The notes: generated by a model not told the origin, from the sequence alone. Shown: positions 8,119 to 58,254, counted from the stretch's first letter. The stretch: DNA of 64,000 nucleotides from a virus (IMGVR_UViG_3300031133_000383:186635-250634); one strand, 5' to 3'. Numbers and translations are program-made.

Positions 8119-9309
8119 ATGTCTTATCCAATTATTATGCATGGCTCAGAAAACTCTTTGGATGTTGACGCTTATGTCATTATTCCTGAACCTTTGTCAT
8201 TACAAGATGCTAAACGCCTTTGTGACTCTTACAAAGATATTAACGCAAACCTTTTGTCGGTAAAAAATGGCGTCGTTGATTGGTGTTATAAAGGAACAGT
8301 TGATGAATGTAACAATTCAATTCTGGCTACCTATGGCCTTCATAAGCAGAAATTTGATATTCCCGTAGAACATGCATTGCCACGTTCTTACGCATTGAAA
8401 ATGATTAGAACTGTTCGAGGCTTGTTGTCTTATCATTCTCGAACAGAAAAAAGAGAGGATGTTAAAAAAGCACTGCAAACTAACGATATGCTTATGAAAC
8501 TGGATGTACTTTCATCGATTGATTTGAGAAGTGTTGATGACTATCAAAAAACTTCAATTACAGAAACCTATAAGTTTTTTGCATTTCAGTTGGGGCAAAC
8601 AATGGCTTTGCTCAAAGACGGTGTTGAACTTTTTACAAAAAACCAAGTGGGTGAATATTACCCGGAATTGCAAGTCTATCTGCAACGTCAAGAAGGTGTC
8701 GCACCTGATGCCTTACAAGATTTTTGGGCGGGCTTTGCGTCCTATTTGAAAGAAACTGTTCGTAAAGTTGAAAAACATGATTTGTTTGCAACTGACTATC
8801 AAGGTGTTAGAGAAGTATTTGATTGCAAGAAAGAATTTGTTTTGCCACCAGTGGTCGTATTTGATATTGATGGTACATTACTTGATGAAAAACACCGAGC
8901 AGAACATAGAGAGAAGAAAGATTGGGATACTTACTTTGATTTGTGTCATCTGGATACGCCTATTCAACACATTGTCGATTTGACTAAAGAATATCGTAAA
9001 AAGGGATATGAAATTTGGTTGATGAGTGGGCGAGTAGATCGTATTATGGATAAAACTATTCAGTCTATGGTAACATGTGGTGCATGTTACGATCATATCA
9101 AATTACGAAGTCCTGAAAATAGAGTTCCTGATTTTGTAATTAAGCCTTCATGGATCAGTAAGTATATCGGTCTTGAGCGTGTCGAAGCTGTATACGATGA
9201 TACAGATCGAGTAATTGAAGGTTTTCGTAAAAAAGGATTAAATGTCATTGATGTTAAAGAACTCACACCTATACCTGTTCCAGTCAAGAAATCAAAAATG
9301 AAGCCTTGA
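8119..9309 (+). CDS. Two-domain protein: uncharacterised N-terminal domain plus C-terminal HAD-superfamily phosphatase (polynucleotide-kinase-phosphatase-like)
   Basis: ATG 8119 follows AAAAGGAA. The track start at 8077 would include the TTTGCTATAAT promoter. HAD motif I is VVVFDIDGTLLDE, motif II is WLMSGR and motif IV is VYDDTDRV. Confidence 0.6.
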   Translation: MSYPIIMHGSENSLDVDAYVIIPEPLSLQDAKRLCDSYKDINANLLSVKNGVVDWCYKGTVDECNNSILATYGLHKQKFDIPVEHALPRSYALKMIRTVRGLLSYHSRTEKREDVKKALQTNDMLMKLDVLSSIDLRSVDDYQKTSITETYKFFAFQLGQTMALLKDGVELFTKNQVGEYYPELQVYLQRQEGVAPDALQDFWAGFASYLKETVRKVEKHDLFATDYQGVREVFDCKKEFVLPPVVVFDIDGTLLDEKHRAEHREKKDWDTYFDLCHLDTPIQHIVDLTKEYRKKGYEIWLMSGRVDRIMDKTIQSMVTCGACYDHIKLRSPENRVPDFVIKPSWISKYIGLERVEAVYDDTDRVIEGFRKKGLNVIDVKELTPIPVPVKKSKMKP

Positions 9310-16512: not shown

Positions 16513-18384
16513 ATGAAACTTACCGAATTTCCATACCCAACTACTGAACCAGAATTTGTCGAATTGCTGACAGATCTCAATGACTGTTATCGAAAACAGC
16601 TTTCAATGTCACCAGTGTTTGGTCTTTTTCCCATTCTTGATGAAGAATATGATGCTTTGGTTGAAGACTTCCGTTCTAAGTTTCCAGAGTCAGCATGGTT
16701 GTCGGAAATTGAAATGGAAGAAGTTGGTGAAAACTATATCATCCATTCAGCACCAATGCTTTCAACTGAGAAAGCTTATTCTGTTGATGATTTGGCTCGT
16801 TGGGCTAAGAAAGTAGAAGACGCCGCAAAAAACCTTCATGTTGAATCAGTGTTCAAAGTAACATGCAAACTTGATGGTTTTGCGGGTGATCACGAATTTG
16901 GCAAATTATCTACTCGGGGTGATGGTGTTAAAGGTAATGATATTACTCATATTTTTGCATCCGGTGTCCTTCATATTGATGGAGTCGATGGACGTGGTGA
17001 AATTGTAGTATCCAAAAGTTATTTTGAAAGCAACTTGAAAGATATCTTTGCCCATCCTCGCAACATGATTGCCAGTGTTGTTTCATCTGATGATATTAAA
17101 GCAGAAACCAAGCAAGTACTTGCTGATGGGGCCGTTCATTTTGTACCTTATTCAACTCTGCCAACCTATGTGGGAACAGCCGATGATATTTTGAAAAATC
17201 TTGAAAAAATCACTACTGATTTGCGAAACAGTGTTGACTATTTGATTGATGGCTTTGTCATTGAATCAACCGTTGCTGAAATCAAAGATTATATGGGCTA
17301 CAATAACCATCACTACAAATGGCAAATCGCTTTCAAAGAACGTGGCGAAAAAGCTCAATCTCCCGTTATTGATATCAAACTTCAAGTCGGACGGACTGGC
17401 ACTGTGACGCCTGTACTGAGCATTCAACCTGTACTCCTTTCTGGTGCATCCATCAGCAGTGTTACGGCTCATCATATGAACAATATTCGCCAAAGTAAAA
17501 TTGGTATTGGTTCTGTTATTGAGATTATTCGCAGTGGTGAAGTGATTCCTAAAATTGAAAGGGTTATTACACAAGCTGAATATGAAATGCCTACTCAATG
17601 CCCTTGCTGTTCAACTGAGTTGCAGTGGGATAGTCATTTCTTGTATTGCCCAAACTCTGCAGGCTGTTCTGAACAAATCAAGCAAACTTTGCTTCATTTC
17701 TTTTCAACTCTCGATAATAATGATGGTTTTGGTGGTAAAACAATCAGTAAATTGGTTGATAGTCAATTCGATACATTGGAAAAAATCTATGCAATGAATG
17801 AGCAAGATTTCTTGATGGCCGGTTTTGGTCCGGGTGAAAGTGTCAATTTGGTAAAAGCCCTAGAAGCAAGTCGTACTACCAAGATTGAAGATTGGAGATT
17901 TCTTGCTGCTTTTGGCATTGCCGATTTGGGTAAAGGAGATTCCAAAAAATTGCTTCAAAACTTTACGTTGGATGCTCTGCATGAAGTAACCGCTGTTAAA
18001 TTGAGCAGTATCAAAGGGTATGGTAAAATCAAAAGTCTGACCATTACAGCAGGTATTGAGAAATACAAGTCTTTGATTGAAACCCTGCGGCCTTTCTTTA
18101 ATCTAGAATTATCTTCAAAAGTTATTATTGATAATGAAAGTCCTTTTTCAGGAAAAAATGTTGTTGTAACAGGAACAATGAAAAAGTTTTCTCGCAAAGA
18201 AATTGAAGCGTTCTTTACTTCAAAGGGAGCTAAAGTACAAAGCAAAGTTAGCAAAACAACCAATTACCTAGTGTATGGCGAAAGTGCTGGTTCGAAGTTT
18301 GATGACGCACAGGCATTAAGGGAAAAAGGAAATCCCATTGAAATTTTGACAGAAGATGAGTTTGTTAATCAGTTTGAAATTTAA
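16513..18384 (+). CDS. ligA: NAD-dependent DNA ligase
   Basis: Adenylation motif TCKLDGFA. Four-Cys zinc finger CPCCSTEL..YCPNSAGC. HhH region. C-terminal BRCT-like GKNVVVTGTMKKFSRKEIEAFFTSKGAKVQSKVSKTTNYLVYGESAGSKFDDA. GGAG RBS and TGGTATAAT promoter. Confidence 0.9.
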   Translation: MKLTEFPYPTTEPEFVELLTDLNDCYRKQLSMSPVFGLFPILDEEYDALVEDFRSKFPESAWLSEIEMEEVGENYIIHSAPMLSTEKAYSVDDLARWAKKVEDAAKNLHVESVFKVTCKLDGFAGDHEFGKLSTRGDGVKGNDITHIFASGVLHIDGVDGRGEIVVSKSYFESNLKDIFAHPRNMIASVVSSDDIKAETKQVLADGAVHFVPYSTLPTYVGTADDILKNLEKITTDLRNSVDYLIDGFVIESTVAEIKDYMGYNNHHYKWQIAFKERGEKAQSPVIDIKLQVGRTGTVTPVLSIQPVLLSGASISSVTAHHMNNIRQSKIGIGSVIEIIRSGEVIPKIERVITQAEYEMPTQCPCCSTELQWDSHFLYCPNSAGCSEQIKQTLLHFFSTLDNNDGFGGKTISKLVDSQFDTLEKIYAMNEQDFLMAGFGPGESVNLVKALEASRTTKIEDWRFLAAFGIADLGKGDSKKLLQNFTLDALHEVTAVKLSSIKGYGKIKSLTITAGIEKYKSLIETLRPFFNLELSSKVIIDNESPFSGKNVVVTGTMKKFSRKEIEAFFTSKGAKVQSKVSKTTNYLVYGESAGSKFDDAQALREKGNPIEILTEDEFVNQFEI

Positions 18385-22203: not shown

Positions 22204-23364
22204 TTATATTTTCTTGATTATTTTTTGATTGTTTTTATTTAATACATATTCCATCATTCCAGATTCAGCATATTTTTTACTTTCATTTTCGCCTACAACA
22301 ATAATATCAGGAATTCCTTTATTTTTCCAATTTCTTATTTTTTTTCCTAAAGATTCAGAACTTTCATCTAGCTTACATGATTTTTTATCAAATTTTGAAT
22401 GAAGTAGCTTTGCGTAGTCGGATGATTTTTCAGAAACGGGTATGATTACTGATTTTATTGGATGCAAAAAATCTGGTATATCTTTCCCAAAAGATTCCAA
22501 CAAAATACCAATCATTCTTTCTAGAGATCCAAGAACAGCATGATGCAATATAATAGGACGTTGCATTTTATTATCAGAATCAACATATTCAAGTCCAAAT
22601 CTTTCTGGTAATACATAGTCCAACTGTATAACACCCAATTGCCAAGAACGACCTAGTTTATCTTCCACCTGAAGCTCTAGTTTTGGACCATAAAAAGCCC
22701 CCTCTCCCGGCAATTCTTGAAAATCAAGGTTGTTCATGGCACAAGCTTCACGCAAGGCGGCTTCAGCCTTATCCCAAAGACTATCTTCACCAAACCTTTT
22801 TTCTGGTCTGAGAGCAATCGCATATTTTATTTTTTTGAATCCTAGTTCTTCATAGGCTTTCTTGCTCATATTGATATATTGATTAACTGAATTAATGAGA
22901 TTTTCTGGATTAACAAACACATGACTGTCATCCTGACAAAATTGTCGCTGTCTGAACAATACCTGCAAAGCTCCTGATGCTTCATTACGATACACTTCAC
23001 CAAATTCAAAAATGGGTAAAGGTAATTCTTTATAACTACGTTTTTCGGATTGATAAATTAAAATGTGATTTGGACAACTCATAGGACGCAGTGCATAATT
23101 ACTAGCTTCTGATGAATTCAAGAAAAACATGTTTTCTTTATATTTTTCCATATGGCCTGATTGTTCAAATAAATTAGCTACCACAATTGAAGGACTTTTA
23201 ACTTCAAGATAACCATTATCTTCATGATGTTTTCTAATAAAAGATTTTAGATTTTCATAAAGCTTTAATCCTTCTGGTTTCCAATAAACAACACCTGCAC
23301 TTTCACTTAACATGAAAAGATTCATTTCATTTGCCACTTGCATATATCTTTTTTCTTCATTCAT
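22204..23364 (-). CDS. thrS: Threonyl-tRNA synthetase, catalytic plus anticodon-binding domains only (no TGS or editing N-terminus)
   Basis: Class II motifs RPMSCPNHILIYQSEKRSYKELPLPIFEFGEVYRNEASGALQVLFRQRQFCQDDSHVF resemble E. coli ThrRS LKPMNCPGHVQIF...RVRGFTQDDAHIF. ATG 23364 lies 8 nt after AGGAG. The track start at 23469 reads through the attenuator hairpin. Confidence 0.85.
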   Translation of the reverse strand: MNEEKRYMQVANEMNLFMLSESAGVVYWKPEGLKLYENLKSFIRKHHEDNGYLEVKSPSIVVANLFEQSGHMEKYKENMFFLNSSEASNYALRPMSCPNHILIYQSEKRSYKELPLPIFEFGEVYRNEASGALQVLFRQRQFCQDDSHVFVNPENLINSVNQYINMSKKAYEELGFKKIKYAIALRPEKRFGEDSLWDKAEAALREACAMNNLDFQELPGEGAFYGPKLELQVEDKLGRSWQLGVIQLDYVLPERFGLEYVDSDNKMQRPIILHHAVLGSLERMIGILLESFGKDIPDFLHPIKSVIIPVSEKSSDYAKLLHSKFDKKSCKLDESSESLGKKIRNWKNKGIPDIIVVGENESKKYAESGMMEYVLNKNNQKIIKKI

Positions 23365-23411
23365 TTTATTTCTCCTAGATAATTGATTATATTTTATTAA
23401 AATTAAGGCAT

Positions 23412-23437
23412 AAAAAAACCCAGCATTTAGCTGGGTT
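23412..23437 (-). terminator. Attenuator terminator of the thrS leader
   Basis: Minus-strand RNA AACCCAGC-UAAAU-GCUGGGUU followed by U-run (7 consecutive U in total), 47 nt upstream of the thrS ATG. Confidence 0.75.
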
Positions 23438-23459
23438 CTTGGTGTGCAGGTATCAATTA

Positions 23460-23534
23460 TTAACGACAATACCTCACCAGCCCAGCTTCGATCTGAGTTG
23501 TTGTGGTAGTTGTTGTATTCTTGACTATGTGCAT
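23460..23534 (-). CDS. thrS leader peptide MHIVKNTTTTTTTQIEAGLVRYCR (24 codons, 7 consecutive Thr codons)
   Basis: ATG 23534 lies 8 nt after AAGGA. Thr codons ACA ACA ACU ACC ACA ACA ACU map to 23516-23496. Tandem stops UAA UAA. The last codons form the left arm of the antiterminator. Confidence 0.75.
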   Translation of the reverse strand: MHIVKNTTTTTTTQIEAGLVRYCR

Positions 23535-28247: not shown

Positions 28248-28326
28248 CGGAGTGTAGGTTAGCCCGGCTTATACCGCCTGCTTTGGGAGCAGGATGTCGC
28301 AGGTTCGAATCCTGCCACTCCGACCA
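28248..28326 (+). tRNA. tRNA-Pro (anticodon UGG), CCA encoded
   Basis: Acceptor CGGAGTG/CACTCCG. Anticodon arm CCTGC-TTTGGGA-GCAGG. T-arm GCAGG-TTCGAAT-CCTGC. Ends in ACCA. The D-arm is atypical (3 bp, long loop). Confidence 0.8.
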
Positions 28327-28339
28327 ATTTAATAATAAT

Positions 28340-28417
28340 TGACAGGTAGCTCAGTGGGGAGAGCGGCTCCAAATTTTCGGGAGACGGTCGGGGGTTCAAA
28401 TCCTTCCTTGTCAACCA
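28340..28417 (+). tRNA. tRNA with atypical 9-nt anticodon loop (AAAUUUUCG); isotype undetermined (Lys-UUU or Glu-UUC reading possible)
   Basis: Acceptor TGACAGG/CTTGTCA. D-arm GCTC-AGTGGGGA-GAGC. T-arm GGGGG-TTCAAAT-CCTTC. ACCA encoded. The anticodon stem pairs only as CTCC/GGAG, which leaves 9 loop nucleotides. Confidence 0.6.
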
Positions 28418-28426
28418 TCTTTATAT

Positions 28427-28514
28427 GGAAAAGTGGCAGAGCGGTTGAATGCAACGGTCTTGAAAACCGTCGGGTGTAAAAGCCTCGTGAGTTCGAATCT
28501 CACCTTTTCCGCCA
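28427..28514 (+). tRNA. tRNA-Ser (anticodon UGA), long variable arm, CCA encoded
   Basis: Acceptor GGAAAAG/CTTTTCC. Anticodon arm ACGGT-CTTGAAA-ACCGT. Variable arm present. T-arm GTGAG-TTCGAAT-CTCAC. Ends in GCCA. Confidence 0.88.
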
Positions 28515-31573: not shown

Positions 31574-32473
31574 GTGGGTAATTTTATTTTAACGGTTGCT
31601 TTTTTCGTCATAATTGGTTTGTTAGCTTGGTCCTGTATTGTCATCACTCGAAATAAACATGTTTCCATTATTGAAACATTTGGTAAGTATTCCAACACCA
31701 AAGAAGCAGGTCTTTCTTTTAAACTTCCATGGCCTATTCAGCATGTAGTGAAATTGGTTCCATTGAATATTCAACAAATAAGCACTACCCTAGAACTTAA
31801 AACCAATGACGATCTTTTTATTCGTTATCCAATCAATGTGCAGTTCAAAGTAGTCGATGCAGAAAAGGCCACCTATGAGCTTGATTCGCCTGAGCAACAG
31901 ATTCTAAGTTATATCAGTAACCTTGTTCGTTCAGAAGTAGGTAAAAAAACATTTCTGGAATTATATAATGTCCGTGATGAAATTCAAGATGTTATTGAAG
32001 AAGTACTGTCAGAAAAAATGTCCAGTTTTGGTTTCAAGATTGTTGCTGTTCTGGTAGATGAACCTATTCCAACAGAAGAAGTTCAAAATTCTTATAATGC
32101 TGTAACCGCATCGGTTCGTGAAAAGGAAGCGGCTAAAAACCGTGCAGAAGCTACTCGAATCACCATTGTAGCAGAAGCACAAGCACAAAAAGAGTCTAAA
32201 AAGCTTCAAGGTGAAGGTATTGCTGATCAACGTTTGGCTATCAGTCAAGGTTTCAAACAGTCCATTGAAGATGTTTCGACTTCTCTAGGCATTTCAAATG
32301 AACTTGCACTTGGCATGATTCTTCAATTGAATAAGTTTGATACACTGCGTGATGTTGCCAATGGTAAAGGCACACTTGTTGTCGCAGATGGTAGTGCTGG
32401 TTCTTCTTTATCTGAAATGACCAGTTTGATTTCAAGTATTAAAGCAGTTGAACTGCAAGCAAAACATATTTGA
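31574..32473 (+). CDS. SPFH/band-7 (stomatin/prohibitin-like) membrane protein
   Basis: GTG lies 7 nt after AAGGAG. N-terminal TM segment FILTVAFFVIIGLLAWSCIVI, then a SPFH-like core (VSIIETFGKY...GLSFKLPWPIQHV...) and an Ala/Glu-rich coiled coil (REKEAAKNRAEATRITIVAEAQAQKESKKLQGEG). Confidence 0.75.
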   Translation: MGNFILTVAFFVIIGLLAWSCIVITRNKHVSIIETFGKYSNTKEAGLSFKLPWPIQHVVKLVPLNIQQISTTLELKTNDDLFIRYPINVQFKVVDAEKATYELDSPEQQILSYISNLVRSEVGKKTFLELYNVRDEIQDVIEEVLSEKMSSFGFKIVAVLVDEPIPTEEVQNSYNAVTASVREKEAAKNRAEATRITIVAEAQAQKESKKLQGEGIADQRLAISQGFKQSIEDVSTSLGISNELALGMILQLNKFDTLRDVANGKGTLVVADGSAGSSLSEMTSLISSIKAVELQAKHI

Positions 32474-35918: not shown

Positions 35919-36047
35919 CTGTAACAACGTTTACTTTTCTTTATAATTTTATTATTTAAATAATTATTTCGAAATTAATGGTAAACGTTTTGACATTTTG
36001 TTTGTTGTTGGTATTATAATATTAATATAATAACAATAATGATATAT

Positions 36048-37322
36048 ATGAAAAAGTTTAAATTTTTACCATTGATATTGATTATACATACAGTAAGTTA
36101 TGCTGACTACACTGTTATCTATCCACTTACAAATGCCTCTATAACTATATCACAAAAACCGCCTAGTTATACTGATTGGGTTTCTGTCGGCAGCCCCTAT
36201 AATTGTGCATCCGCAAGTCCTATGGAAAATACAATTAATGAAGGTATTTCATATACCAAAAATTTTACTAATTGTGACCAAAACCAAGAAAGAAAAAAGA
36301 CGATAGGGTCAGTTGTCACTAATGAACAGCGTACCGTTTCTGGTATCAATTATCAAACTCAAAGTGTAGGTACAAAAAAATATATCCCAACCTATACTGA
36401 TTGGGTAAATGTGGATAATGCTTATAACTGTGCTTCTGCGACTCCTATGGAAAACACTGTCAATGAAGGCGTTGCTTATACAAAAACATTTAGTGATTGC
36501 AGTCAAAATCAAGAAAGAACAAAGACACTAAACTCCGTGGTTACCATAGAACAACGTACTGTTTCTGGCATCACTTATCAATCTCAAAGTGTAGGTACAA
36601 AAAAATCTGTTCCTACCTATACTGATTGGACCAACGTTGGTGGAGCTTATAATTGTAATCAAAATCCTAAAGAAGACACTATTGATGAAGGAGTGAGTTA
36701 CACAAAAACTTTTAGTGAATGTAGTCAAGATCAGGAAAGAACAAAAACATTAGATTCCACAGTTTCTGTAGAAAAACGCACTATTCCAGCACCTAGTTAT
36801 CAAACCCAAAGTGTTGGAACAAAAGTAGCTGTTGCAACTTATACAGAATGGGCAAAATCAGGAACTCCATACAATTGCAAAAATATTGGACCTATGGAAG
36901 ATACATTTAATGAAGGAACAGTGTTTACAAAAAATTACAATGATTGCAGTCAGGATTACACTCGAACTAAGACATATAAAGGTGTCAACACAACTGAGAG
37001 TCAAACGTTACAGGGATTTAATTATTCTGTTCAAAGCGTAGGTACACGATCAGTAACAGAATGTGCTCCTTATGCGACTAACAATAATTATCGTTGGATT
37101 GACGTTGCCAAACAACAGCTTGGTACACCTAATTATAAATATGAATTATGGTGGAATGGCAAAGCATTGGCTTTCTTAACAGATAAACCTGTTACCACTG
37201 CAGCGGATAAAACTTTTACCACAGGTGGTTATGTGTATAGTCGTGGAGAATATAAAGAAAGTACAGTAAGAAATAGCGATTATAAATACTTCTATTATCA
37301 AGTGTGTAGAAAACCTGTCTAA
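36048..37322 (+). CDS. Secreted Cys-repeat protein, 4 repeats plus conserved C-terminal domain (tandem paralog 1 of 4)
   Basis: Signal peptide MKKFKFLPLILIIHTVSYA|DY. Four ~74-aa repeats of YT[DE]W..G..YNC....P.E.T..EG..YTK.F..CSQ.QERTKT. Start chosen by promoter-to-ATG spacing homology with the paralogs; ATG 36039 is an alternative. Confidence 0.75.
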   Translation: MKKFKFLPLILIIHTVSYADYTVIYPLTNASITISQKPPSYTDWVSVGSPYNCASASPMENTINEGISYTKNFTNCDQNQERKKTIGSVVTNEQRTVSGINYQTQSVGTKKYIPTYTDWVNVDNAYNCASATPMENTVNEGVAYTKTFSDCSQNQERTKTLNSVVTIEQRTVSGITYQSQSVGTKKSVPTYTDWTNVGGAYNCNQNPKEDTIDEGVSYTKTFSECSQDQERTKTLDSTVSVEKRTIPAPSYQTQSVGTKVAVATYTEWAKSGTPYNCKNIGPMEDTFNEGTVFTKNYNDCSQDYTRTKTYKGVNTTESQTLQGFNYSVQSVGTRSVTECAPYATNNNYRWIDVAKQQLGTPNYKYELWWNGKALAFLTDKPVTTAADKTFTTGGYVYSRGEYKESTVRNSDYKYFYYQVCRKPV

Positions 37323-37325
37323 CTT

Positions 37326-37358
37326 AAAAAACACTCTTTTTCGAAAGGGTGTTTTTTT
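37326..37358 (+). terminator. Intrinsic terminator after paralog 1
   Basis: ACACTCTTT-TTCG-AAAGGGTGT followed by a T-run. Confidence 0.75.
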
Positions 37359-37439
37359 ATAAACGTCTATTATTCAATAAAAATTTTGACATTATAATTA
37401 TTTTTGATATTATAATGTTAATACAACAATAAATATATT

Positions 37440-38273
37440 ATGACACATTTCAAGCTTTTACCTCTTTTGCTTTTTGTACAAACCATTAGTTATGCTGACT
37501 ACACTGTTATTTATCCATTAGCCGATTCTTCAATTTCAATAAAGCATAAAATTGAACCATCATTGCCGACCTATACAGAATGGGCATCCGTAGGCGAACC
37601 CTATAATTGTACGTATTCAACACCAAAAGAGGATACAATTGAAGAAGATACCGTATATACGAAAACTTTTAGTAATTGTACTCAAAAACAATCAAGAACA
37701 AAAACACTAGATTCGAATGTTACTACAGAGGAACGTACTATTTCTGGCGTACAATACCAAGCTCAAAGTATAGGTACAAAATTGGCTGTCGCTACTTACA
37801 CAGAATGGGCTATATCTGGTAAACCTTATGATTGTAAATCAGCTAGCCCTATGGAAGATGCCTTTACGGAAGGAACTGTCTTCACAAAACACTATACTGA
37901 TTGTAGCCAGAATTTAACTAGGATTAAAACCTACAAAGGTGTACAAACAACTGAAAGTAAAGTGGCGACCGGTTATGGATATGATGCTGAAAGCGTTGGA
38001 ACACGATCTGTGACTGAATGTATGACTCGATCTACTGATTATTATTGGATCGATGCAGCTAAACAACCGCTTGGATCACCCAACTATAAATATAATATAA
38101 AATGGAACAAGTCAACTTTGGCCAGTTATACATCAAAAGTCAATAACAACCCAGCAGATACAAGTTTTACCTCAGACGGTTATATTTATAGTCGTGGAAC
38201 CTACAGATCAACAACTTTACGATTTGAGGATTATAAATACTTTTATTATGACATATGCAGAAAACCTATTTAA
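37440..38273 (+). CDS. Secreted Cys-repeat protein, 2 repeats plus C-terminal domain (tandem paralog 2)
   Basis: Own TTGACA / TATAAT promoter at about 37386-37420. Signal peptide MTHFKLLPLLLFVQTISYA|DY. C-terminus is ...YKYFYYDICRKPI. Confidence 0.75.
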   Translation: MTHFKLLPLLLFVQTISYADYTVIYPLADSSISIKHKIEPSLPTYTEWASVGEPYNCTYSTPKEDTIEEDTVYTKTFSNCTQKQSRTKTLDSNVTTEERTISGVQYQAQSIGTKLAVATYTEWAISGKPYDCKSASPMEDAFTEGTVFTKHYTDCSQNLTRIKTYKGVQTTESKVATGYGYDAESVGTRSVTECMTRSTDYYWIDAAKQPLGSPNYKYNIKWNKSTLASYTSKVNNNPADTSFTSDGYIYSRGTYRSTTLRFEDYKYFYYDICRKPI

Positions 38274-38398
38274 CTTATAATAAAAAGCACATTGTGGGAT
38301 ATGCTTTTTTATTAATTATTATTTCTATTATTCAATAATTTATTTTGACATCATATTAATTTTTGATATTATAATATTAATACAATAATAAATATATT

Positions 38399-39232
38399 AT
38401 GACACATTTCAAGCTTTTACCTCTTTTGCTTTTTGTACAAACCATTAGTTATGCTGACTACACTGTTATTTATCCATTAACCGATTCTTCAATTTTAATA
38501 AAGAATAAAATTGTACCATCAGTGCCTACCTACACAGAATGGGCATCCGTAGGCGAACCTTATAATTGTGCATCATCAAATCCACAAGAATATAATGTGG
38601 ATGAAGGTGTAACCTATACTAAGACTTTTAATGATTGCATACAAAAACAAGAAAGAACGAAAACATTAGACAAAGAGATTACCACTGAATCTCGTACTAT
38701 TTCTATTTCGCAATATAAAGTTCAAAGTATTGGAACAAAGGTAGCTATACCTAGTTATACCGAATGGACTAATTCTGGTAGTGCTTATAACTGTCAATCC
38801 GTTAGCCCTATGGAAGATACTATTTCAAAAGGAAAAGAATATACAAAAAATTATACCAACTGCAGTATTAATCAAACTAGAACAAAAACACTTAATAATG
38901 TTAAAAATACTGAGACACGAGTTGCTGATGGGTATTCATACTCTATTCAAAGTGTTGGAACAAGAAATGATGAAGAATGTTTAAAATTTTCAAATTCTAG
39001 TCGTTGGGTAGATTATGCAAAAACACCACTTACTGCACCTAATTACAAATATCAAGTAGTATGGAATGGTAATGTATATGCTTCTTTTTCAAATTTACCA
39101 GAAAAAACCAATGTAGACATGAGTTTTACTTCAGGAATCTATGTATACACTCGTGGAACCTATCAATATTCGCAAAAAGTTGATAAGGATTATCAATATT
39201 TTTATTATGAATTATGTAGAAAGCCTATTTAA
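38399..39232 (+). CDS. Secreted Cys-repeat protein (tandem paralog 3)
   Basis: The first 60 nt of the CDS and the promoter are nearly identical to paralog 2; the remainder is diverged. C-terminus is ...YQYFYYELCRKPI. Confidence 0.75.
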   Translation: MTHFKLLPLLLFVQTISYADYTVIYPLTDSSILIKNKIVPSVPTYTEWASVGEPYNCASSNPQEYNVDEGVTYTKTFNDCIQKQERTKTLDKEITTESRTISISQYKVQSIGTKVAIPSYTEWTNSGSAYNCQSVSPMEDTISKGKEYTKNYTNCSINQTRTKTLNNVKNTETRVADGYSYSIQSVGTRNDEECLKFSNSSRWVDYAKTPLTAPNYKYQVVWNGNVYASFSNLPEKTNVDMSFTSGIYVYTRGTYQYSQKVDKDYQYFYYELCRKPI

Positions 39233-39340
39233 TTTTTATCAATAAATAATAATAAATGTTAAGTATTATATTAAATATTTTGATATTGTAGAACTTGGTG
39301 GTATTATAATAATAGAACAATAATTATATATTTAACCTCT

Positions 39341-40198
39341 ATGAATTTTTTTAAATTACTACCTTTGATTTTTGCAATACAATCAATCAGCTATGCTGAT
39401 TATACAGTCATTTATCCTTTGGATAGTTATCTTCTTAGTATAAAAAATAAAGTTGTAACCAATCCTGATGACGGCTCTGAACAATCTGTCTATACAGAAT
39501 GGTCATCCAATACAGATCCATACGATTGTGCAAAAATTTCGCCACTTTCAGAAACTATTGACGAAGGGGTATCCTTTACTAAAACATTTTCCAACTGTCT
39601 GCAAGACCAAACACGAACAAAAACTTTAAATTCTAAAATATCTATTGAGCATCGGACTGTTCAGGGTGTAGGTTATACAACTCAAAGTATAGGAACAAAG
39701 AAAGCCGTGGCTACTTATACAGAGTGGGTCAGATCAGGTGTACCTTATAAATGTGAGTTTATTGGGCCGATGGAAGATACTGTTGTGGAAGGATCTGCAT
39801 ATACCAAGACTTATAAAAATTGTAGTGCGGATTTTATCAGAACTAAAACACTCAGTGGTGTTGAAACAACTGAAAGTAAGGTCGTCACTGGTTATGAATA
39901 TTCTGTTCAAAGTATTGGAACTCTATCAGGAACAGAATGCTTGGTTTATAACGATACCACTAGTCAGAGTCGTTGGATTGATGCTGCTAAAACAGAGATG
40001 TCGGCTCCCAATTATAAATATGAGCTAACATGGAAAGGAAAATATATAGCAAACTTTACATCATCTACTGTCAATGTGGTTGATAACAGTTTTACAAAGG
40101 ATGGTTATATTTATAGTCGTGGAAAGTTTTTTTCTCGCTATGACCGTAATTTTGGCTATTATTATTTTGCCTATCAAGTGTGTAGAAAACCTGTTTGA
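39341..40198 (+). CDS. Secreted Cys-repeat protein (tandem paralog 4)
   Basis: Signal peptide MNFFKLLPLIFAIQSISYA|DY. Two repeats. C-terminus is ...YYYFAYQVCRKPV. Confidence 0.75.
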   Translation: MNFFKLLPLIFAIQSISYADYTVIYPLDSYLLSIKNKVVTNPDDGSEQSVYTEWSSNTDPYDCAKISPLSETIDEGVSFTKTFSNCLQDQTRTKTLNSKISIEHRTVQGVGYTTQSIGTKKAVATYTEWVRSGVPYKCEFIGPMEDTVVEGSAYTKTYKNCSADFIRTKTLSGVETTESKVVTGYEYSVQSIGTLSGTECLVYNDTTSQSRWIDAAKTEMSAPNYKYELTWKGKYIANFTSSTVNVVDNSFTKDGYIYSRGKFFSRYDRNFGYYYFAYQVCRKPV

Positions 40199-40280
40199 GT
40201 CAACTATAAAATTGTTGACATTTAAAAAAAGCTTTGTTATATTCAATTCTTAAAATTAATAAACAAAAGAGGAATACACC

Positions 40281-40436
40281 ATGGCTAAGATAACAGTTTA
40301 TACCAAGAGCGAACGTAAAGAACGTGATGTTGAGTTAGCATGGAGACAGAGAGAAGCTGCTTTCAATCCAAAAATCTCGAAAGAAAAAGCTTGGGAACGA
40401 TTTGAACAATTACGTGAAAAAGCTCTTGGCTATTAA
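40281..40436 (+). CDS. Small basic hypothetical protein (51 aa), below the ORF-track size cut-off
   Basis: TTGACA, 17-nt spacer, TATATT promoter (about 40214-40242). AGAGGA RBS. ORF MAKITVYTKSERKERDVELAWRQREAAFNPKISKEKAWERFEQLREKALGY. Terminator AAGCAAC-TTTCAT-GTTGCTT at 40451-40470. Confidence 0.55.
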   Translation: MAKITVYTKSERKERDVELAWRQREAAFNPKISKEKAWERFEQLREKALGY

Positions 40437-40495
40437 CCTTACTATAATTAAAAAGCAACTTTCATGTTGCTTTTCTTCATTTGGGGCACTGATAT

Positions 40496-44096: not shown

Positions 44097-46200
<2,104 letters not shown>

Positions 46201-56415: not shown

Positions 56416-57675
56416 ATGCATATTTTTATTAAAGAACTAAAAGACCGTAATCTTATTTCACAAATGACTGATGAAAATAAAATTTCAATTTTGTTAGACA
56501 AGGGTGTTTCGTTATACTGTGGTTTTGATCCAACGGCTGATTCATTACATGTGGGTAGTTTATTACCACTAATCACCATGCTTCGTTTTAAGCGGGCTGG
56601 TCATCGTGTATTCCCCTTGATTGGTGGAGCAACAGGTATGATTGGTGATCCTAGCTTCAAAGCTCAGGAACGTAGTCTTAATGATGTTGATACTGTAAAT
56701 CGGTTTAAATCAGGTATTGCTGCCCAAATTAAAGCAATTCTTGGGGATGTAGAACTGGTTGACAATCATGATTGGACAGCAAACCTTTCAGTTATTGATT
56801 TTTTGCGAGAAGTAGGGAAACATTTCTCAGTGAACAGTATGTTGAATAAAGAATCTGTACGCAGTCGCTTGGATCGTGATGATCAGGGTATTTCTTTTAC
56901 TGAATTCTCATACCAGTTACTGCAGTCCATGGATTTTCATCATTTGTTTAAATCAAAAGGGTGCCAACTGCAGTTGGGCGGTAGCGATCAGTGGGGAAAC
57001 ATTACGGCAGGCATTGATTTGATCCATCGTAAGGAAGGCAATGATGCTGTGGCAACTGGTTTGACTATGCCATTGTTGGTAAAATCGGACGGTACTAAAT
57101 TTGGTAAAAGTGAAAGTGGTGCAGTATGGCTAGCTCCTGATAAAACTTCGGCTTTTGACTTCTTCCAGTTTTGGTTAAAAGTGGCCGATGCTGATATTCC
57201 AAAGTTTTTCAAGATGCTTTCCTTTAGAAGTATTGAAGATATTGATTGTATCCTCGAAGCTGATAAGAATCGTGTAAAACCAGTAGCTCAACAATTGCTT
57301 GCCGAAGAATTAACTGCTTTGATTCATGGTCAAGACGCATTGGATGCAGTTCTTCGAAATAATCAGGCTTTGTTTGACAACAACTTTGACAGCTTACATG
57401 AAAACGATTTTCACATGTTGGTAAAAAACGGTATGAAGTTGATGAAAACACAGGAAAATAACTTATTAGAACTCCTAGTCGCTTCTGGTTTGTCTAAATC
57501 AAAACGTCAAGGTAGAGAGTTTATTCAAAATGGAGCAGTACAGATTAATGGACGAAAAGTCAAAATTGATGAAAATGACATGAACTCTGCCATTATTGAA
57601 GACTTTAAATTTGGTCAGTTTGCTGTACTGCAACGAGGAAAACGAGAATTTATTCTCATTGAAAAGCCCGCTTGA
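56416..57675 (+). CDS. tyrS: Tyrosyl-tRNA synthetase (bacterial type, with C-terminal S4-like domain)
   Basis: HIGH motif (DSLHVGSLLPL). KMSKS motif (KFGKS). GGSDQWGNI. C-terminal RQGREFIQNGAVQINGRKV. Confidence 0.92.
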   Translation: MHIFIKELKDRNLISQMTDENKISILLDKGVSLYCGFDPTADSLHVGSLLPLITMLRFKRAGHRVFPLIGGATGMIGDPSFKAQERSLNDVDTVNRFKSGIAAQIKAILGDVELVDNHDWTANLSVIDFLREVGKHFSVNSMLNKESVRSRLDRDDQGISFTEFSYQLLQSMDFHHLFKSKGCQLQLGGSDQWGNITAGIDLIHRKEGNDAVATGLTMPLLVKSDGTKFGKSESGAVWLAPDKTSAFDFFQFWLKVADADIPKFFKMLSFRSIEDIDCILEADKNRVKPVAQQLLAEELTALIHGQDALDAVLRNNQALFDNNFDSLHENDFHMLVKNGMKLMKTQENNLLELLVASGLSKSKRQGREFIQNGAVQINGRKVKIDENDMNSAIIEDFKFGQFAVLQRGKREFILIEKPA

Positions 57676-57689
57676 TGCGGGTTTTTTTA
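57662..57689. terminator. Bidirectional terminator between tyrS and the convergent gene
   Basis: AAAAGCCCGC-TTGAT-GCGGGTTTTTTT, overlapping the tyrS stop. Confidence 0.8.
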
Positions 57690-58106
57690 TTGTTTTTGAG
57701 TGCCTGTTTCAAAACGACTATCAAATTGATTGGTAGACAATCTCTTTTCAATAACAACATCTCCTACGTCTCGATAAATACCTTGAGTATTGACCTCTTG
57801 ATTCTGTACCATTCGATATTGTTCAACACTGCAATCATAAGCAAATTGACGAAATATCTTTCCTTCCGGTATAGTACTTGCTTCTGGTTTCCAGACGTTG
57901 CATTTAAAATCAGATGAATCATACCATTCTGAAACTAAGGGTGTTTCCTGTTTCCAATCACTACTTTCTATTATAGTGGGTAACGAGGAATTTAAAGAAG
58001 CCTTTTGTGTATTGAATTTTGATATGTCGTCCAAGGAATAAAAGACTATAATCGAAAAACTACAAGCTACAATAAAGATAATAAATAACATTGTTTTATT
58101 TCCCAT
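57687..58106 (-). CDS. Exported or membrane-anchored protein with one copy of the Cys-repeat module found in 36048-40198
   Basis: ATG 58106 lies 7 nt after AAGGA. N-terminal hydrophobic MLFIIFIVACSFSIIVF. Module EWYDSSDFKCNVWKPEASTIPEGKIFRQFAYDCSVEQYR. Confidence 0.65.
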   Translation of the reverse strand: MGNKTMLFIIFIVACSFSIIVFYSLDDISKFNTQKASLNSSLPTIIESSDWKQETPLVSEWYDSSDFKCNVWKPEASTIPEGKIFRQFAYDCSVEQYRMVQNQEVNTQGIYRDVGDVVIEKRLSTNQFDSRFETGTQKQ

Positions 58107-58254
58107 CACTTTATCCTTCAAGATTGATTTATTTGCTATATTAATACAAATTTAGAAAAAATCAATTTTATAAGTTAACTTTTTGCTTTTGACAAAATGA
58201 ATTAACTTTGGTAGACTTATGATGTATTTTAGGAAAATTAATGAGGATCAAGAA

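Follow-up and report, generated by a model that had tools for sequence, protein, structure and literature searches.

Accessory proteins that are expressed early or constitutively, exported or membrane-anchored, and active at the host envelope include Sp and Imm of phage T4, Llp of T5, Ltp of TP-J34, and the plasmid protein TraT. In Ltp, a signal peptide is followed by tandemly repeated domains. A Sec signal is also found in invasin/intimin and in the G5-E rods of SasG and Aap, together with a rigid rod of flat beta repeats and a disulfide-stabilised C-terminal binding domain. The locus considered here lies in a 64,000-nucleotide stretch of viral DNA (the window) and consists of four tandem genes, p1–p4, and a fifth copy, p5. 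While a layout of the latter kind is predicted for p1–p4, their module is a different domain, with no sequence or significant structural homology to invasin/intimin-type rods, and Foldseek matches, which include the G5 and Aap B-repeat rods, are weak. Big_1/Invasin_D3 domains are present only in a relative on the Pseudomonas megaplasmid pBT2436, and not in p1–p5. Assignment of p1–p5 to the invasin/intimin (inverse autotransporter) class was rejected, as Pfam identified no outer-membrane beta-barrel, Big_1 repeats or C-type-lectin-like head, and the cell-wall anchor of SasG/Aap-like rods is missing from the window proteins. Similarly, p1–p5 have no homology to known exclusion or anti-phage defence proteins in Pfam, PHROGs or PADLOC, and none of the exclusion proteins, nor TraT, contains the p1–p4 module or head.

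The module also invites comparison with the thrombospondin type-1 repeat (TSR; Pfam TSP1_2, PF23260), since both carry a W...C...W-S-P...G...Q-x-R-like motif and the module, like the TSR, is predicted to be elongated, roughly three-stranded and disulfide-pinned. Summed TSP1_2 scores in two multi-module relatives (61 and 38 bits) exceed the Pfam cut-off, although no single repeat passes. However, the window module has two cysteines rather than six and one conserved W in place of WxxWxxW, and the window proteins have no Pfam match at E<=1. An hhalign comparison of the module profile with approximate TSR sequences gave a probability of 0.8%, and the TSR assignment was not retained.

Homologues are found in Pseudomonas. 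Examples are WP_019437248.1 of pBT2436 ("Ig-like domain-containing protein"), WP_054068201.1 of the megaplasmid pMPPla107 (981 aa, hypothetical), and hypothetical proteins of P. shirazensis, P. luteola and P. aeruginosa. These have the same two-Cys module of 75–85 aa, and many share the signal peptide, N-terminal motif and ...GYxYxxG...CRxP domain. They differ in their low identity to the window proteins (25–35%), their 1–41 modules, their location on replicons of ~50–56% GC, and, in some cases, the addition of Big_1/Invasin_D3 or other heads.

Organization, expression signals and history of the tandem genes

Four consecutive paralogous genes, all genuine ORFs on the + strand, occupy positions 36048–40198, as the first-pass annotation had proposed. 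The first, p1 (36048–37322), encodes 424 aa from MKKFKF, in agreement with the database gene call; the ORF opening at 36039 would give 427 aa. A signal peptide (36048–36104) and the mature N-terminus DYTVIYPL are followed by four 75-aa modules (36159–37055) and a C-terminal head (37056–37319). TRF detects a 225-nt period within p1, and the family module HMM scores the protein at 246 bits, with four module matches. The remaining genes each have two modules: p2 (37440–38273, 277 aa; signal peptide 37440–37496, modules 37563–38012, head 38013–38270), p3 (38399–39232, 277 aa; 38399–38455, 38522–38971 and 38972–39229, respectively), and p4 (39341–40198, 285 aa; 39341–39397, 39482–39931 and 39932–40195).

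A single motif, TTGAYA-N13-KKGR-TATTATAAT, lies 22–31 nt 5′ of each p1–p4 ATG, and it occurs exactly four times in the window, where 0.00 occurrences are expected. Read as sigma-70 elements, it comprises TTGACA-16-TATTAT plus a TGn extended -10. All copies are on the + strand. The p1 promoter (35990–36020, TTGACATTTTGTTTGTTGTTGGTATTATAAT) has this arrangement and ends 27 nt 5′ of the ATG at 36048; those of p2 (37386–37416, TTGACATTATAATTATTTTTGATATTATAAT) and p3 (38345–38375, TTGACATCATATTAATTTTTGATATTATAAT) follow the shared motif, as does that of p4 (39280–39310), in which the -35 is weaker (TTGATA...TGGTATTATAAT). For the window as a whole, 14 near-consensus sigma-70 promoters were seen 15–40 nt before ATGs, versus ~5.5 expected. 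The individual TTGACA/TATAAT promoters described initially are strong sigma-70-type promoters at all four genes, but the 16-nt spacing yields TATTAT, and a perfect TATAAT reading requires a 19-nt spacer.

Terminators are less regular. The p1 gene is followed by a convincing intrinsic terminator (37326–37357, + strand), a 14-bp hairpin and U-run with a folding energy of -13.1 kcal/mol (z -4.78) that none of 200 shuffles equalled. An imperfect hairpin with a U-run at 38278–38314 (+ strand; -8.3 kcal/mol, z -2.72) is a probable terminator for p2. Folding revealed none 3′ of p3 or p4, so that two of the four genes, rather than most of them, have their own. The term "moron-like" fits with respect to the promoters, in part with respect to the terminators, and not with respect to base composition (paralog GC of 0.31–0.34 vs. 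0.31 for the window). No Shine-Dalgarno core was detected upstream of any of the four genes, which makes their level of translation uncertain.

The first-pass annotation had also regarded the genes as rapidly diversifying after recent duplication. This view is not supported by the dN/dS values: dS is saturated (0.95–2.3) and dN/dS is 0.14–0.48 in every pair (for p2/p3, outside the first ~54 codons), values that show maintained function and mark the genes as old paralogs under purifying selection. The near-identity of the 5′ ends of p2 and p3 is nonetheless real. By sliding identity, the two agree at 95–100% of nucleotides over ~37404–37553, then drop to 52–77% downstream, while dS is 0.00 over codons 1–41 and 1.0–1.4 in the remainder. 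The shared patch of roughly 200 bp (37386–37600, matching 38345–38559, + strand; 87–100% identity vs. 52–77% elsewhere) spans the promoter, leader, signal peptide, N-terminal motif and start of module 1. It bears the signature of a recent gene-conversion or recombination event.

Domain architecture and the protein family

On inspection of their translations, p1–p4 have the features of Sec-dependent signal peptides cleaved by SPase I, namely a basic n-region, a hydrophobic core of ~12 residues, and S-Y-A at positions -3 to -1. For example, one N-terminus reads MTHFK-LLPLLLFVQTI-SYA|D, with S at -3 and A at -1, and relatives show the same pattern. The mature N-terminus is conserved as well (SYA|DYTVIYPL). 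Ten modules of 74–75 aa are distributed 4/2/2/2 over p1–p4, in keeping with the two or four copies per gene originally reported. They share 36–72% pairwise identity, fall into two subtypes (internal and last), and each contain two Cys, 22–23 residues apart. Cys number is even in every paralog protein, and both Sec export and disulfide bonding are predicted for p1–p4 with near-certainty.

The conserved C-terminal domain was likewise found in all four proteins, ending in CRKP[VI], at a length of 86–88 aa rather than the ~100 aa first estimated. One Cys lies at its start and another 4–5 residues before its end, in ...CRKP[VI], and the domain is rich in aromatic residues (Y/W/F). Modelled alone by AF2, the p2 head is confidently all-beta (pLDDT 92.6, pTM 0.81). 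Its best structural match is the all-beta Alt a 1/PevD1 beta-barrel fold, with 73–74 of 93 residues aligned. In the p2 model, a short strand and a long beta hairpin make up the module (pLDDT 81–92).

The fifth copy, p5, is on the - strand at 57687–58106 (139 aa from the ATG; the ORF start is a TTG at 58121). A single module behind a membrane anchor had been proposed here, and the module is genuine: p5 scores 44 bits against the family-wide module HMM (E 3e-13 in a search of the window's 466 six-frame ORFs), covers model positions 2–81 of 82 up to its C-terminus, and is the only match in the window besides p1–p4. An N-terminal hydrophobic anchor with a possible lipobox (IVAC) is joined by a linker to this one module, and the C-terminal head and DYTVIYPL motif are both absent.

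Homology to a well-described family would have lessened the novelty of these proteins. None was found, and no Pfam (E<=1), NCBIfam, PHROGs or PADLOC model matches the paralogs. Instead, an exhaustive profile search recovered a large, undescribed family, with 335 cluster representatives at E<=1e-3, 162 at <=1e-10, and E-values down to 1e-111 for non-self proteins. Nearly all members have an N-terminal signal peptide and 1–41 modules, the first beginning at residue ~40–55. Within the family module (75–85 aa), W, C and C are invariant and P, F/Y, Q/K and R nearly so; p5 and all ten p1–p4 modules can be aligned to those of distant members. The motif x[YF]x[VIL]x[IV][PN][LI] follows the signal peptide in p1–p4 and relatives, though not in p5.

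About a third of the members have a recognisable copy of the p1–p4 C-terminal domain. Its pattern (70–100 aa, a Cys at the start, GYxYxxG, and a terminal YxxCRxP) is present in p1–p4 and not p5, and in an alignment of 30 sequences C10 and C89 are invariant, with G63, Y66 and R90 conserved in >=90%. Other members instead end in a Fibrinogen_C-like, F5/8-type-C (discoidin), FG-GAP, RCC1, Calx-beta or LRR domain, while still others join the modules to Big_1/Invasin_D3 or an N-terminal subtilase. Extracellular binding proteins whose head can be exchanged are built in this way. Neither experiment nor homology assigns a function to any member, and the named ones are labelled "hypothetical", "Ig-like domain-containing" or "invasin domain 3-containing".

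The source element, a 604-kb contig, has tRNAs and genes for aaRS and NAD ligase as well as one resembling a prohead protease, and it encodes a homologue, at 45% identity, of a protein from the Xanthomonas jumbo phage XacN1. It is huge and phage-like, and probably a phage; most genes within the window are ORFans. The sole other copy of the p1–p4 locus is identical over 20.8 kb. Elsewhere, phage-like contigs of 80–370 kb contain pairs of one-module paralogs in tandem, with promoter-like sites, and tandem pairs from contigs of 190–370 kb are among the 335 representatives. A relative with three modules, encoded on a Pseudomonas shirazensis contig, was used as a tblastn query and matched 91 Pseudomonas megaplasmids, including pBT2436 and pMPPla107, the latter in 19 places. 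The proteins p1–p5 belong to an undescribed, putatively exported family carried mainly by giant mobile elements, i.e., huge phages and Pseudomonas megaplasmids.

Candidate functions of the predicted exported proteins

In the explanation preferred here, each tandem gene would be its own transcription unit, read by the sigma-70 RNA polymerase of the host; such reading would make expression probably early or constitutive. The product would pass through Sec, be cleaved after S-Y-A, and fold in the oxidising periplasm, beginning with a short conserved N-terminal strand. Two or four flat beta modules, with a single disulfide holding each, would then form a rigid rod, capped by an all-beta domain of ~87 aa whose first and last strands are joined by a disulfide. 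The rod would be a spacer and its cap a head that binds a ligand; the phage would possess four related yet distinct heads from the four paralogs and, in p5, a membrane-anchored, headless single module. As p1–p4 have neither an anchor nor a way through the outer membrane, their location may be periplasmic or at the surface. The heads would most likely bind a host envelope component, whether glycan or protein (surface or periplasmic), thereby altering what reaches or leaves the infected cell. The leading guess is that they mask a receptor or cause superinfection exclusion; exclusion, envelope modification and surface interaction, as first suggested, are all plausible candidates. This stalk-and-head explanation as a whole is offered tentatively, with slightly more doubt than belief.

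Extracellular adhesins or lectins would be an unlikely alternative, though the most probable of those considered. Here the proteins would exit through the host type II system or on lysis, and stick infected cells, debris or virions to surfaces, other cells or polysaccharide, with aggregation or biofilm retention as the outcome instead of exclusion. Relatives have as many as 41 modules and heads of the lectin or propeller type, features typical of fibrous adhesins; modules are found alongside Big_1/Invasin_D3, and heads rich in Y/W/F recall many carbohydrate-binding sites. On the other hand, p1–p4 and their neighbourhood showed no sign of an outer-membrane anchor, a beta-barrel, a T1SS/T5SS signal or a dedicated secretion gene, stalks of 2–4 modules are short, and the gain for a lytic huge phage is hard to see.

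It is improbable that p1–p4 are effectors or toxins against eukaryotic grazers or hosts, i.e., cargo resembling lysogenic conversion that helps the bacterium rather than phage replication. "Eukaryote-like" heads in relatives (Fibrinogen_C, discoidin, RCC1, LRR), host-type promoters, the low GC (21–36%) of family-bearing metagenome contigs, and the weak summed TSP1_2 scores would suit this role. Nevertheless, the phage proteins have no toxin or enzymatic domain, the TSR relationship fails the profile-profile test, and no integrase, repressor or other sign of lysogeny was found in the window ORFs scanned.

Still less credible is a self-assembling fibre, in which the N-terminal strand, with its alternating hydrophobic residues, would slot into the following subunit's C-terminal beta domain (donor-strand complementation), so that filaments arise in the periplasm or at the surface with no need of a chaperone-usher system. 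Family members conserve the motif A|x[YF]x[VIL]x[IV]P[LI], but it has no fixed place in the AF2 monomer (pLDDT <40); by a crude regular expression, 53 of the 59 proteins that have the C-terminal domain contain it, compared with 66 of the 124 that lack the domain. Yet relatedness confounds this association, members with a discoidin or fibrinogen-like head have the motif too, and pilus-like assembly genes are not adjacent in the phage. Chaperone-usher or donor-strand pilins were rejected as a class for p1–p4, there being no pilin, chaperone or usher Pfam match in the paralogs or scanned neighbours; the remaining neighbour genes have no Pfam match on record.

Virion-associated fibre or decoration proteins, whose N-terminal hydrophobic segments would not be functional signal peptides, are very improbable, given a canonical signal-peptide pattern kept in plasmid and bacterial relatives, paired cysteines implying an oxidising compartment, early-type sigma-70 promoters and monocistronic units unlike late structural operons, and no structural PHROG match.

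Beyond the stalk-and-head explanation lies a broader and speculative proposal, namely that the family may be a toolkit characteristic of giant mobile elements: huge phages, megaplasmids of ~0.4–1 Mb, and unexplained ORFan-rich contigs of 1.8–1.9 Mb. Through its conserved N-terminal strand the protein would be tethered to the envelope or polymerise there, and a stalk of 1–41 modules would set how far away incoming phages, pili or other ligands are intercepted by the interchangeable head. If this long shot proved true, the family would represent a new, structurally novel device for surface or entry exclusion, or a self-assembling fibre, common to phages and plasmids.

Tandem paralogs and their expression signals

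Four consecutive plus-strand genes (36048–40198) encode the proteins p1 (36039/36048–37322, 427 or 424 aa), p2 (37440–38273, 277 aa), p3 (38399–39232, 277 aa), and p4 (39341–40198, 285 aa). The ORFs are as described in the first-pass annotation, and the observation is confirmed far beyond chance. All four N-termini have a basic n-region, a hydrophobic core of ~12 residues, and the sequence S-Y-A, after which the mature proteins open with an identical DYTVIYPL. Cutting the proteins at their YT[DE]W motif yields ten modules of 74–75 aa, split 4/2/2/2, in keeping with the two or four copies per protein initially proposed. Pairwise identity between modules is 36–72%, each module has two Cys residues spaced 22–23 residues apart, and two subtypes (internal and last-module) can be told apart. 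Within p1, the repeat was also recovered by TRF as a 225-nt period. The last module is followed by a C-terminal domain, referred to as the head or CRxP domain, in which one Cys lies close to the start and a second within the terminal CRKP[VI]. This domain is conserved, as claimed, but is 86–88 aa long rather than ~100 aa.

Each of the four genes was also thought to possess its own promoter, and this proved correct: each of p1–p4 is preceded by one copy of the motif TTGAYA-N13-KKGR-TATTATAAT, and these four copies, versus 0.00 expected, are the only ones in the window. Read as a sigma-70 promoter, the motif fits best as TTGACA and TATTAT separated by a 16-nt spacer, with a TGn extended −10 (11/12). 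Over the whole window, 14 near-consensus sigma-70 promoters (at least 11/12) were found versus ~5.5 expected, and ten of the 11 on the plus strand sit 15–40 nt upstream of an ATG ORF. This excess before ATG ORFs argues that some of the element's genes rely on host-type promoters and are apparently read by the host RNA polymerase. Terminators, said to accompany most of the paralogs, consist of a convincing hairpin plus U-run after p1 (−13.1 kcal/mol, z −4.8) and a plausible one after p2 (−8.3 kcal/mol, z −2.7); the same scan detected none after p3 or p4. A Shine-Dalgarno core is present for about half of the window's genes and precedes none of p1–p4, the leaders of which consist solely of A and T (36020–36047, 37417–37439, 38376–38398, and 39311–39340). 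Such leaders point to Shine-Dalgarno-independent initiation or deliberately low translation.

Two adjoining features were observed. Directly 3′ of p4 is a compact plus-strand unit (40215–40474) with a TTGACA-17-TATATT promoter, a strong Shine-Dalgarno sequence, a 51-aa basic ORF (40282–40435), and a terminator-like hairpin (40451–40474). An SPFH/Band 7 family gene (31574–32473, plus strand) lies 3.5 kb upstream of the array.

The protein family, its architecture, and its hosts

The novelty initially attributed to the module survived comparison with curated libraries, as p1–p4 and a fifth copy, p5, had no significant match in Pfam, PHROGs, NCBIfam, or PADLOC. A weak match to DUF5356 (E 0.014–0.024) was below the cut-off and was dismissed. 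Literature searches turned up no account of the family. Among 50,697 phage records, neither megablast with 18 kb of sequence nor tblastn with p2 and P0179, a family relative, produced a match; at this sensitivity, no isolate phage carries the family. With p2 as query, no relative was located in viral contigs, and a word-seeded search with p1 recovered only the four paralogs. Finding relatives required an exhaustive profile search. An alignment of mature p2, p3, and p4 plus the two halves of p1 was searched against 1.84 billion representatives, and it retrieved 335 proteins at E ≤ 1e-3, 162 at ≤ 1e-10, and 39 at ≤ 1e-30. The proteins p1–p5 define or join a sizeable family that is absent from curated libraries.

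The fifth copy (57687–58121, minus strand, ATG at 58106) was checked with module HMMs. It scores 17–18 bits against an HMM built from the window's modules alone, versus 44 bits, with the whole model covered, against one built from 335 non-redundant modules of relatives. With the latter it is the sole further match among the window's 466 six-frame ORFs. Its N-terminus is a hydrophobic anchor with a possible lipobox (IVAC), and it lacks both the DYTVIYPL motif and the C-terminal domain. The earlier description of a single-repeat copy with a membrane anchor is therefore upheld.

Architecture was analyzed in 224 fetched family proteins. Nearly all begin with a signal peptide, followed in most by x[YF]x[VIL]x[IV][PN][LI]; the first module starts at residue ~40–55, and the number of modules ranges from 1 to 41. 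A recognizable CRxP head ends 73 of the 224, and more have divergent CRxP tails. In relatives without this head, the slot after the array is occupied by a Fibrinogen_C-like, F5/8-type-C (discoidin), Calx-beta, LRR, or ChitinaseA_N-type Ig domain, or by an FG-GAP or RCC1 propeller. Some members have an N-terminal subtilase with He_PIG domains, or Big_1/Invasin_D3. The N-terminal strand motif is seen, too, in members whose head is discoidin or fibrinogen-like; it is found in 53 of 59 proteins with a CRxP head versus 66 of 124 without, an association confounded by relatedness. The strand could anchor the protein, direct its sorting, cap the first module, or act as a donor strand. In a 13-sequence full-length alignment, the W, C, P, and C of both modules and the two head Cys are invariant or nearly so, while in a 43-module alignment W, C, and C are invariant and P, F, Q, and R are at least 90% conserved.

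An AF2 model of mature p2 has a mean pLDDT of 77, with the modules at 81–92 and the first 20 residues unplaced (pLDDT <40). In this model, a module consists of one short strand and a long two-stranded hairpin. The head alone, predicted from a 30-sequence alignment, is all-beta (pLDDT 92.6, pTM 0.81). Foldseek against the PDB gave nothing at E ≤ 0.001 for either model, and a profile search of the PDB with the module alignment gave 0 matches. The head is thus a confident model with no apparent fold relative among solved structures.

Named members are hypothetical proteins of Pseudomonas aeruginosa, P. luteola, P. shirazensis, and Hafnia. P0179, which adjoins plasmid-type replication genes, matched 101 plasmids by tblastn, 91 of them Pseudomonas megaplasmids of 0.38–0.97 Mb and nine from Vibrio; pBT2436 and pMPPla107 are both among the plasmids matched, and pMPPla107 was matched in 19 places. 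When species genomes were scanned for the pattern of bacterial-type modules, only two Pseudomonas loci emerged, one of them on a second, ~971-kb megaplasmid. In metagenomes, another relative, P0224, heads a pair of tandem one-module paralogs (204 and 205 aa), each with a promoter-like site, on contigs of 80–373 kb with 31–32% GC and an adjoining class I aaRS, and a lipoprotein gene follows the pair; a further relative, P0194, is on a 190-kb contig of similar character. Tandem arrays occur in both the window and the P0224 contigs and are therefore recurrent in giant mobile elements. On a huge-phage-like contig (L002, 8001–10148), the lipoprotein gene after the tandem one-module pair has an LTGC lipobox. 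Also present at this locus, ~5 kb downstream of the paralogs, is a T4 Imm-like superinfection immunity gene (PF14373; 15368–15691).

Other settings were noted as well. One member is on an ORFan-rich 1.84-Mb contig (ERZ27281805 k141_522346, 36% GC), where 0 of the 27 genes examined in 17 kb had a Pfam match; this contig may represent a bacterium, a megaplasmid, or a giant virus. Another, P0183, is listed on a 1.9-Mb contig. A member with a discoidin (F5/8 type C) head is found among ordinary bacterial genes on a 1.04-Mb contig (JGI 3300034072, 21% GC). The homologue on pBT2436 of P. aeruginosa (locus L014, 5638–7558) combines a signal peptide with Big_1/Invasin_D3, a single module, and a divergent head; the gene directly upstream encodes a prepilin with a Shufflon_N (PilV-like) region, and a tyrosine recombinase trio is nearby. 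The idea that the homologue is a shufflon cassette of that prepilin was rejected, since its own signal peptide lies in a longer ORF and a search for sfx-like repeats found none.

Evolution of the paralogs

Nei-Gojobori estimates from a codon alignment of p1–p4 gave a saturated dS (0.95–2.3) in every pair and region except the p2/p3 5′ end, and dN/dS of 0.14–0.48, highest in the C-terminal domain. These values argue for an old duplication with purifying selection on p1–p4, and both positive selection and recent duplication are rejected. The first-pass annotation had proposed recent duplication followed by diversification of the exposed part, based on the near-identical 5′ ends of p2 and p3. The identity itself is real: dS is 0.00 over the first 41 codons, and nucleotide identity is 95–100% over ~37404–37553, rising from within the promoter, versus 52–77% downstream. 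Its source, though, is a recent ~200-bp gene-conversion or recombination patch, outside of which p2/p3 dN/dS is in the purifying range. The original reading stands in that the paralogs are secreted accessory proteins of a phage-like element, each with its own promoter; it fails on the tempo of evolution.

The element and a proposed role

The paralogs were found on a 604,313-bp contig and an independent 323-kb assembly, the latter identical over 20.8 kb. GC content of the window is 31%. Its genes include those for TyrRS (56416–57675, plus), SerRS (44106–45389, plus), and a class II aaRS with an HGTP anticodon domain (22204–23469, minus), plus a tRNA-Pro/Lys/Ser cluster (28248–28514, plus); the TyrRS is ~50% identical to that of Rak2/GAP32-like jumbo phages. 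An NAD-dependent DNA ligase (16513–18384, plus) and a PNKP-type HAD phosphatase (8077–9309, plus) suggest a nucleic-acid repair set. Also present are a ClpP/S49-type "head maturation protease" (phrog_53, E 9e-34) and a DNA-polymerase-like fragment; the remaining genes are mostly ORFans. The best link to cultured phage is a 777-aa protein with no Pfam domain (4883–7219, minus; phrog_33734, E 3e-153). Along ~90–92% of its length it shares 45% identity with ORF396 of XacN1 and with a protein of Xoo-sp13, both of them Xanthomonas jumbo phages. The aaRS genes, the protease-like gene, and the XacN1 homologue bear out the phage-like character first ascribed to the element, and a huge phage is its best reading, although on the window alone it may be a megaplasmid.

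Given the varied domains in the slot after the array, the array can be regarded as a spacer and the terminal domain as an interchangeable ligand-binding head. This architecture fits that of extracellular binding proteins, and by position the phage CRxP domain is a putative ligand-binding head; its richness in Tyr, Trp, and Phe would, as a conjecture, be compatible with glycan binding. The proteins belong to known kinds: secreted binding proteins with a repeat stalk, and the accessory genes of phages. Export, paired Cys, host-type promoters, and four maintained, diverged heads together lead to the proposal that the phage would equip the infected cell's envelope with a small set of binding proteins, most likely resulting in masking or exclusion. 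Adhesion in place of masking or exclusion is the main alternative. A T9SS-type C-terminal sorting domain was dismissed, since promoter type and hosts both point to proteobacteria, and other heads occur in two thirds of the family.

Huge phages and megaplasmids are filled with genes lacking a known function, and the family described here is a tractable one: two new domains are clearly defined, one of them modelled at high confidence without a solved relative. It is maintained by purifying selection, has undergone tandem amplification in at least two huge-phage lineages, and is shared with clinically relevant multidrug-resistance megaplasmids of Pseudomonas (the pBT2436 family). While the phage is uncultured, the plasmid homologues in culturable Pseudomonas provide an experimental handle. 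Should the proteins be ordinary adhesin-like cargo, the domain definition would still be useful for annotation; if the heads bind envelope components, they would illustrate the way in which very large mobile elements remodel the surface of the host.
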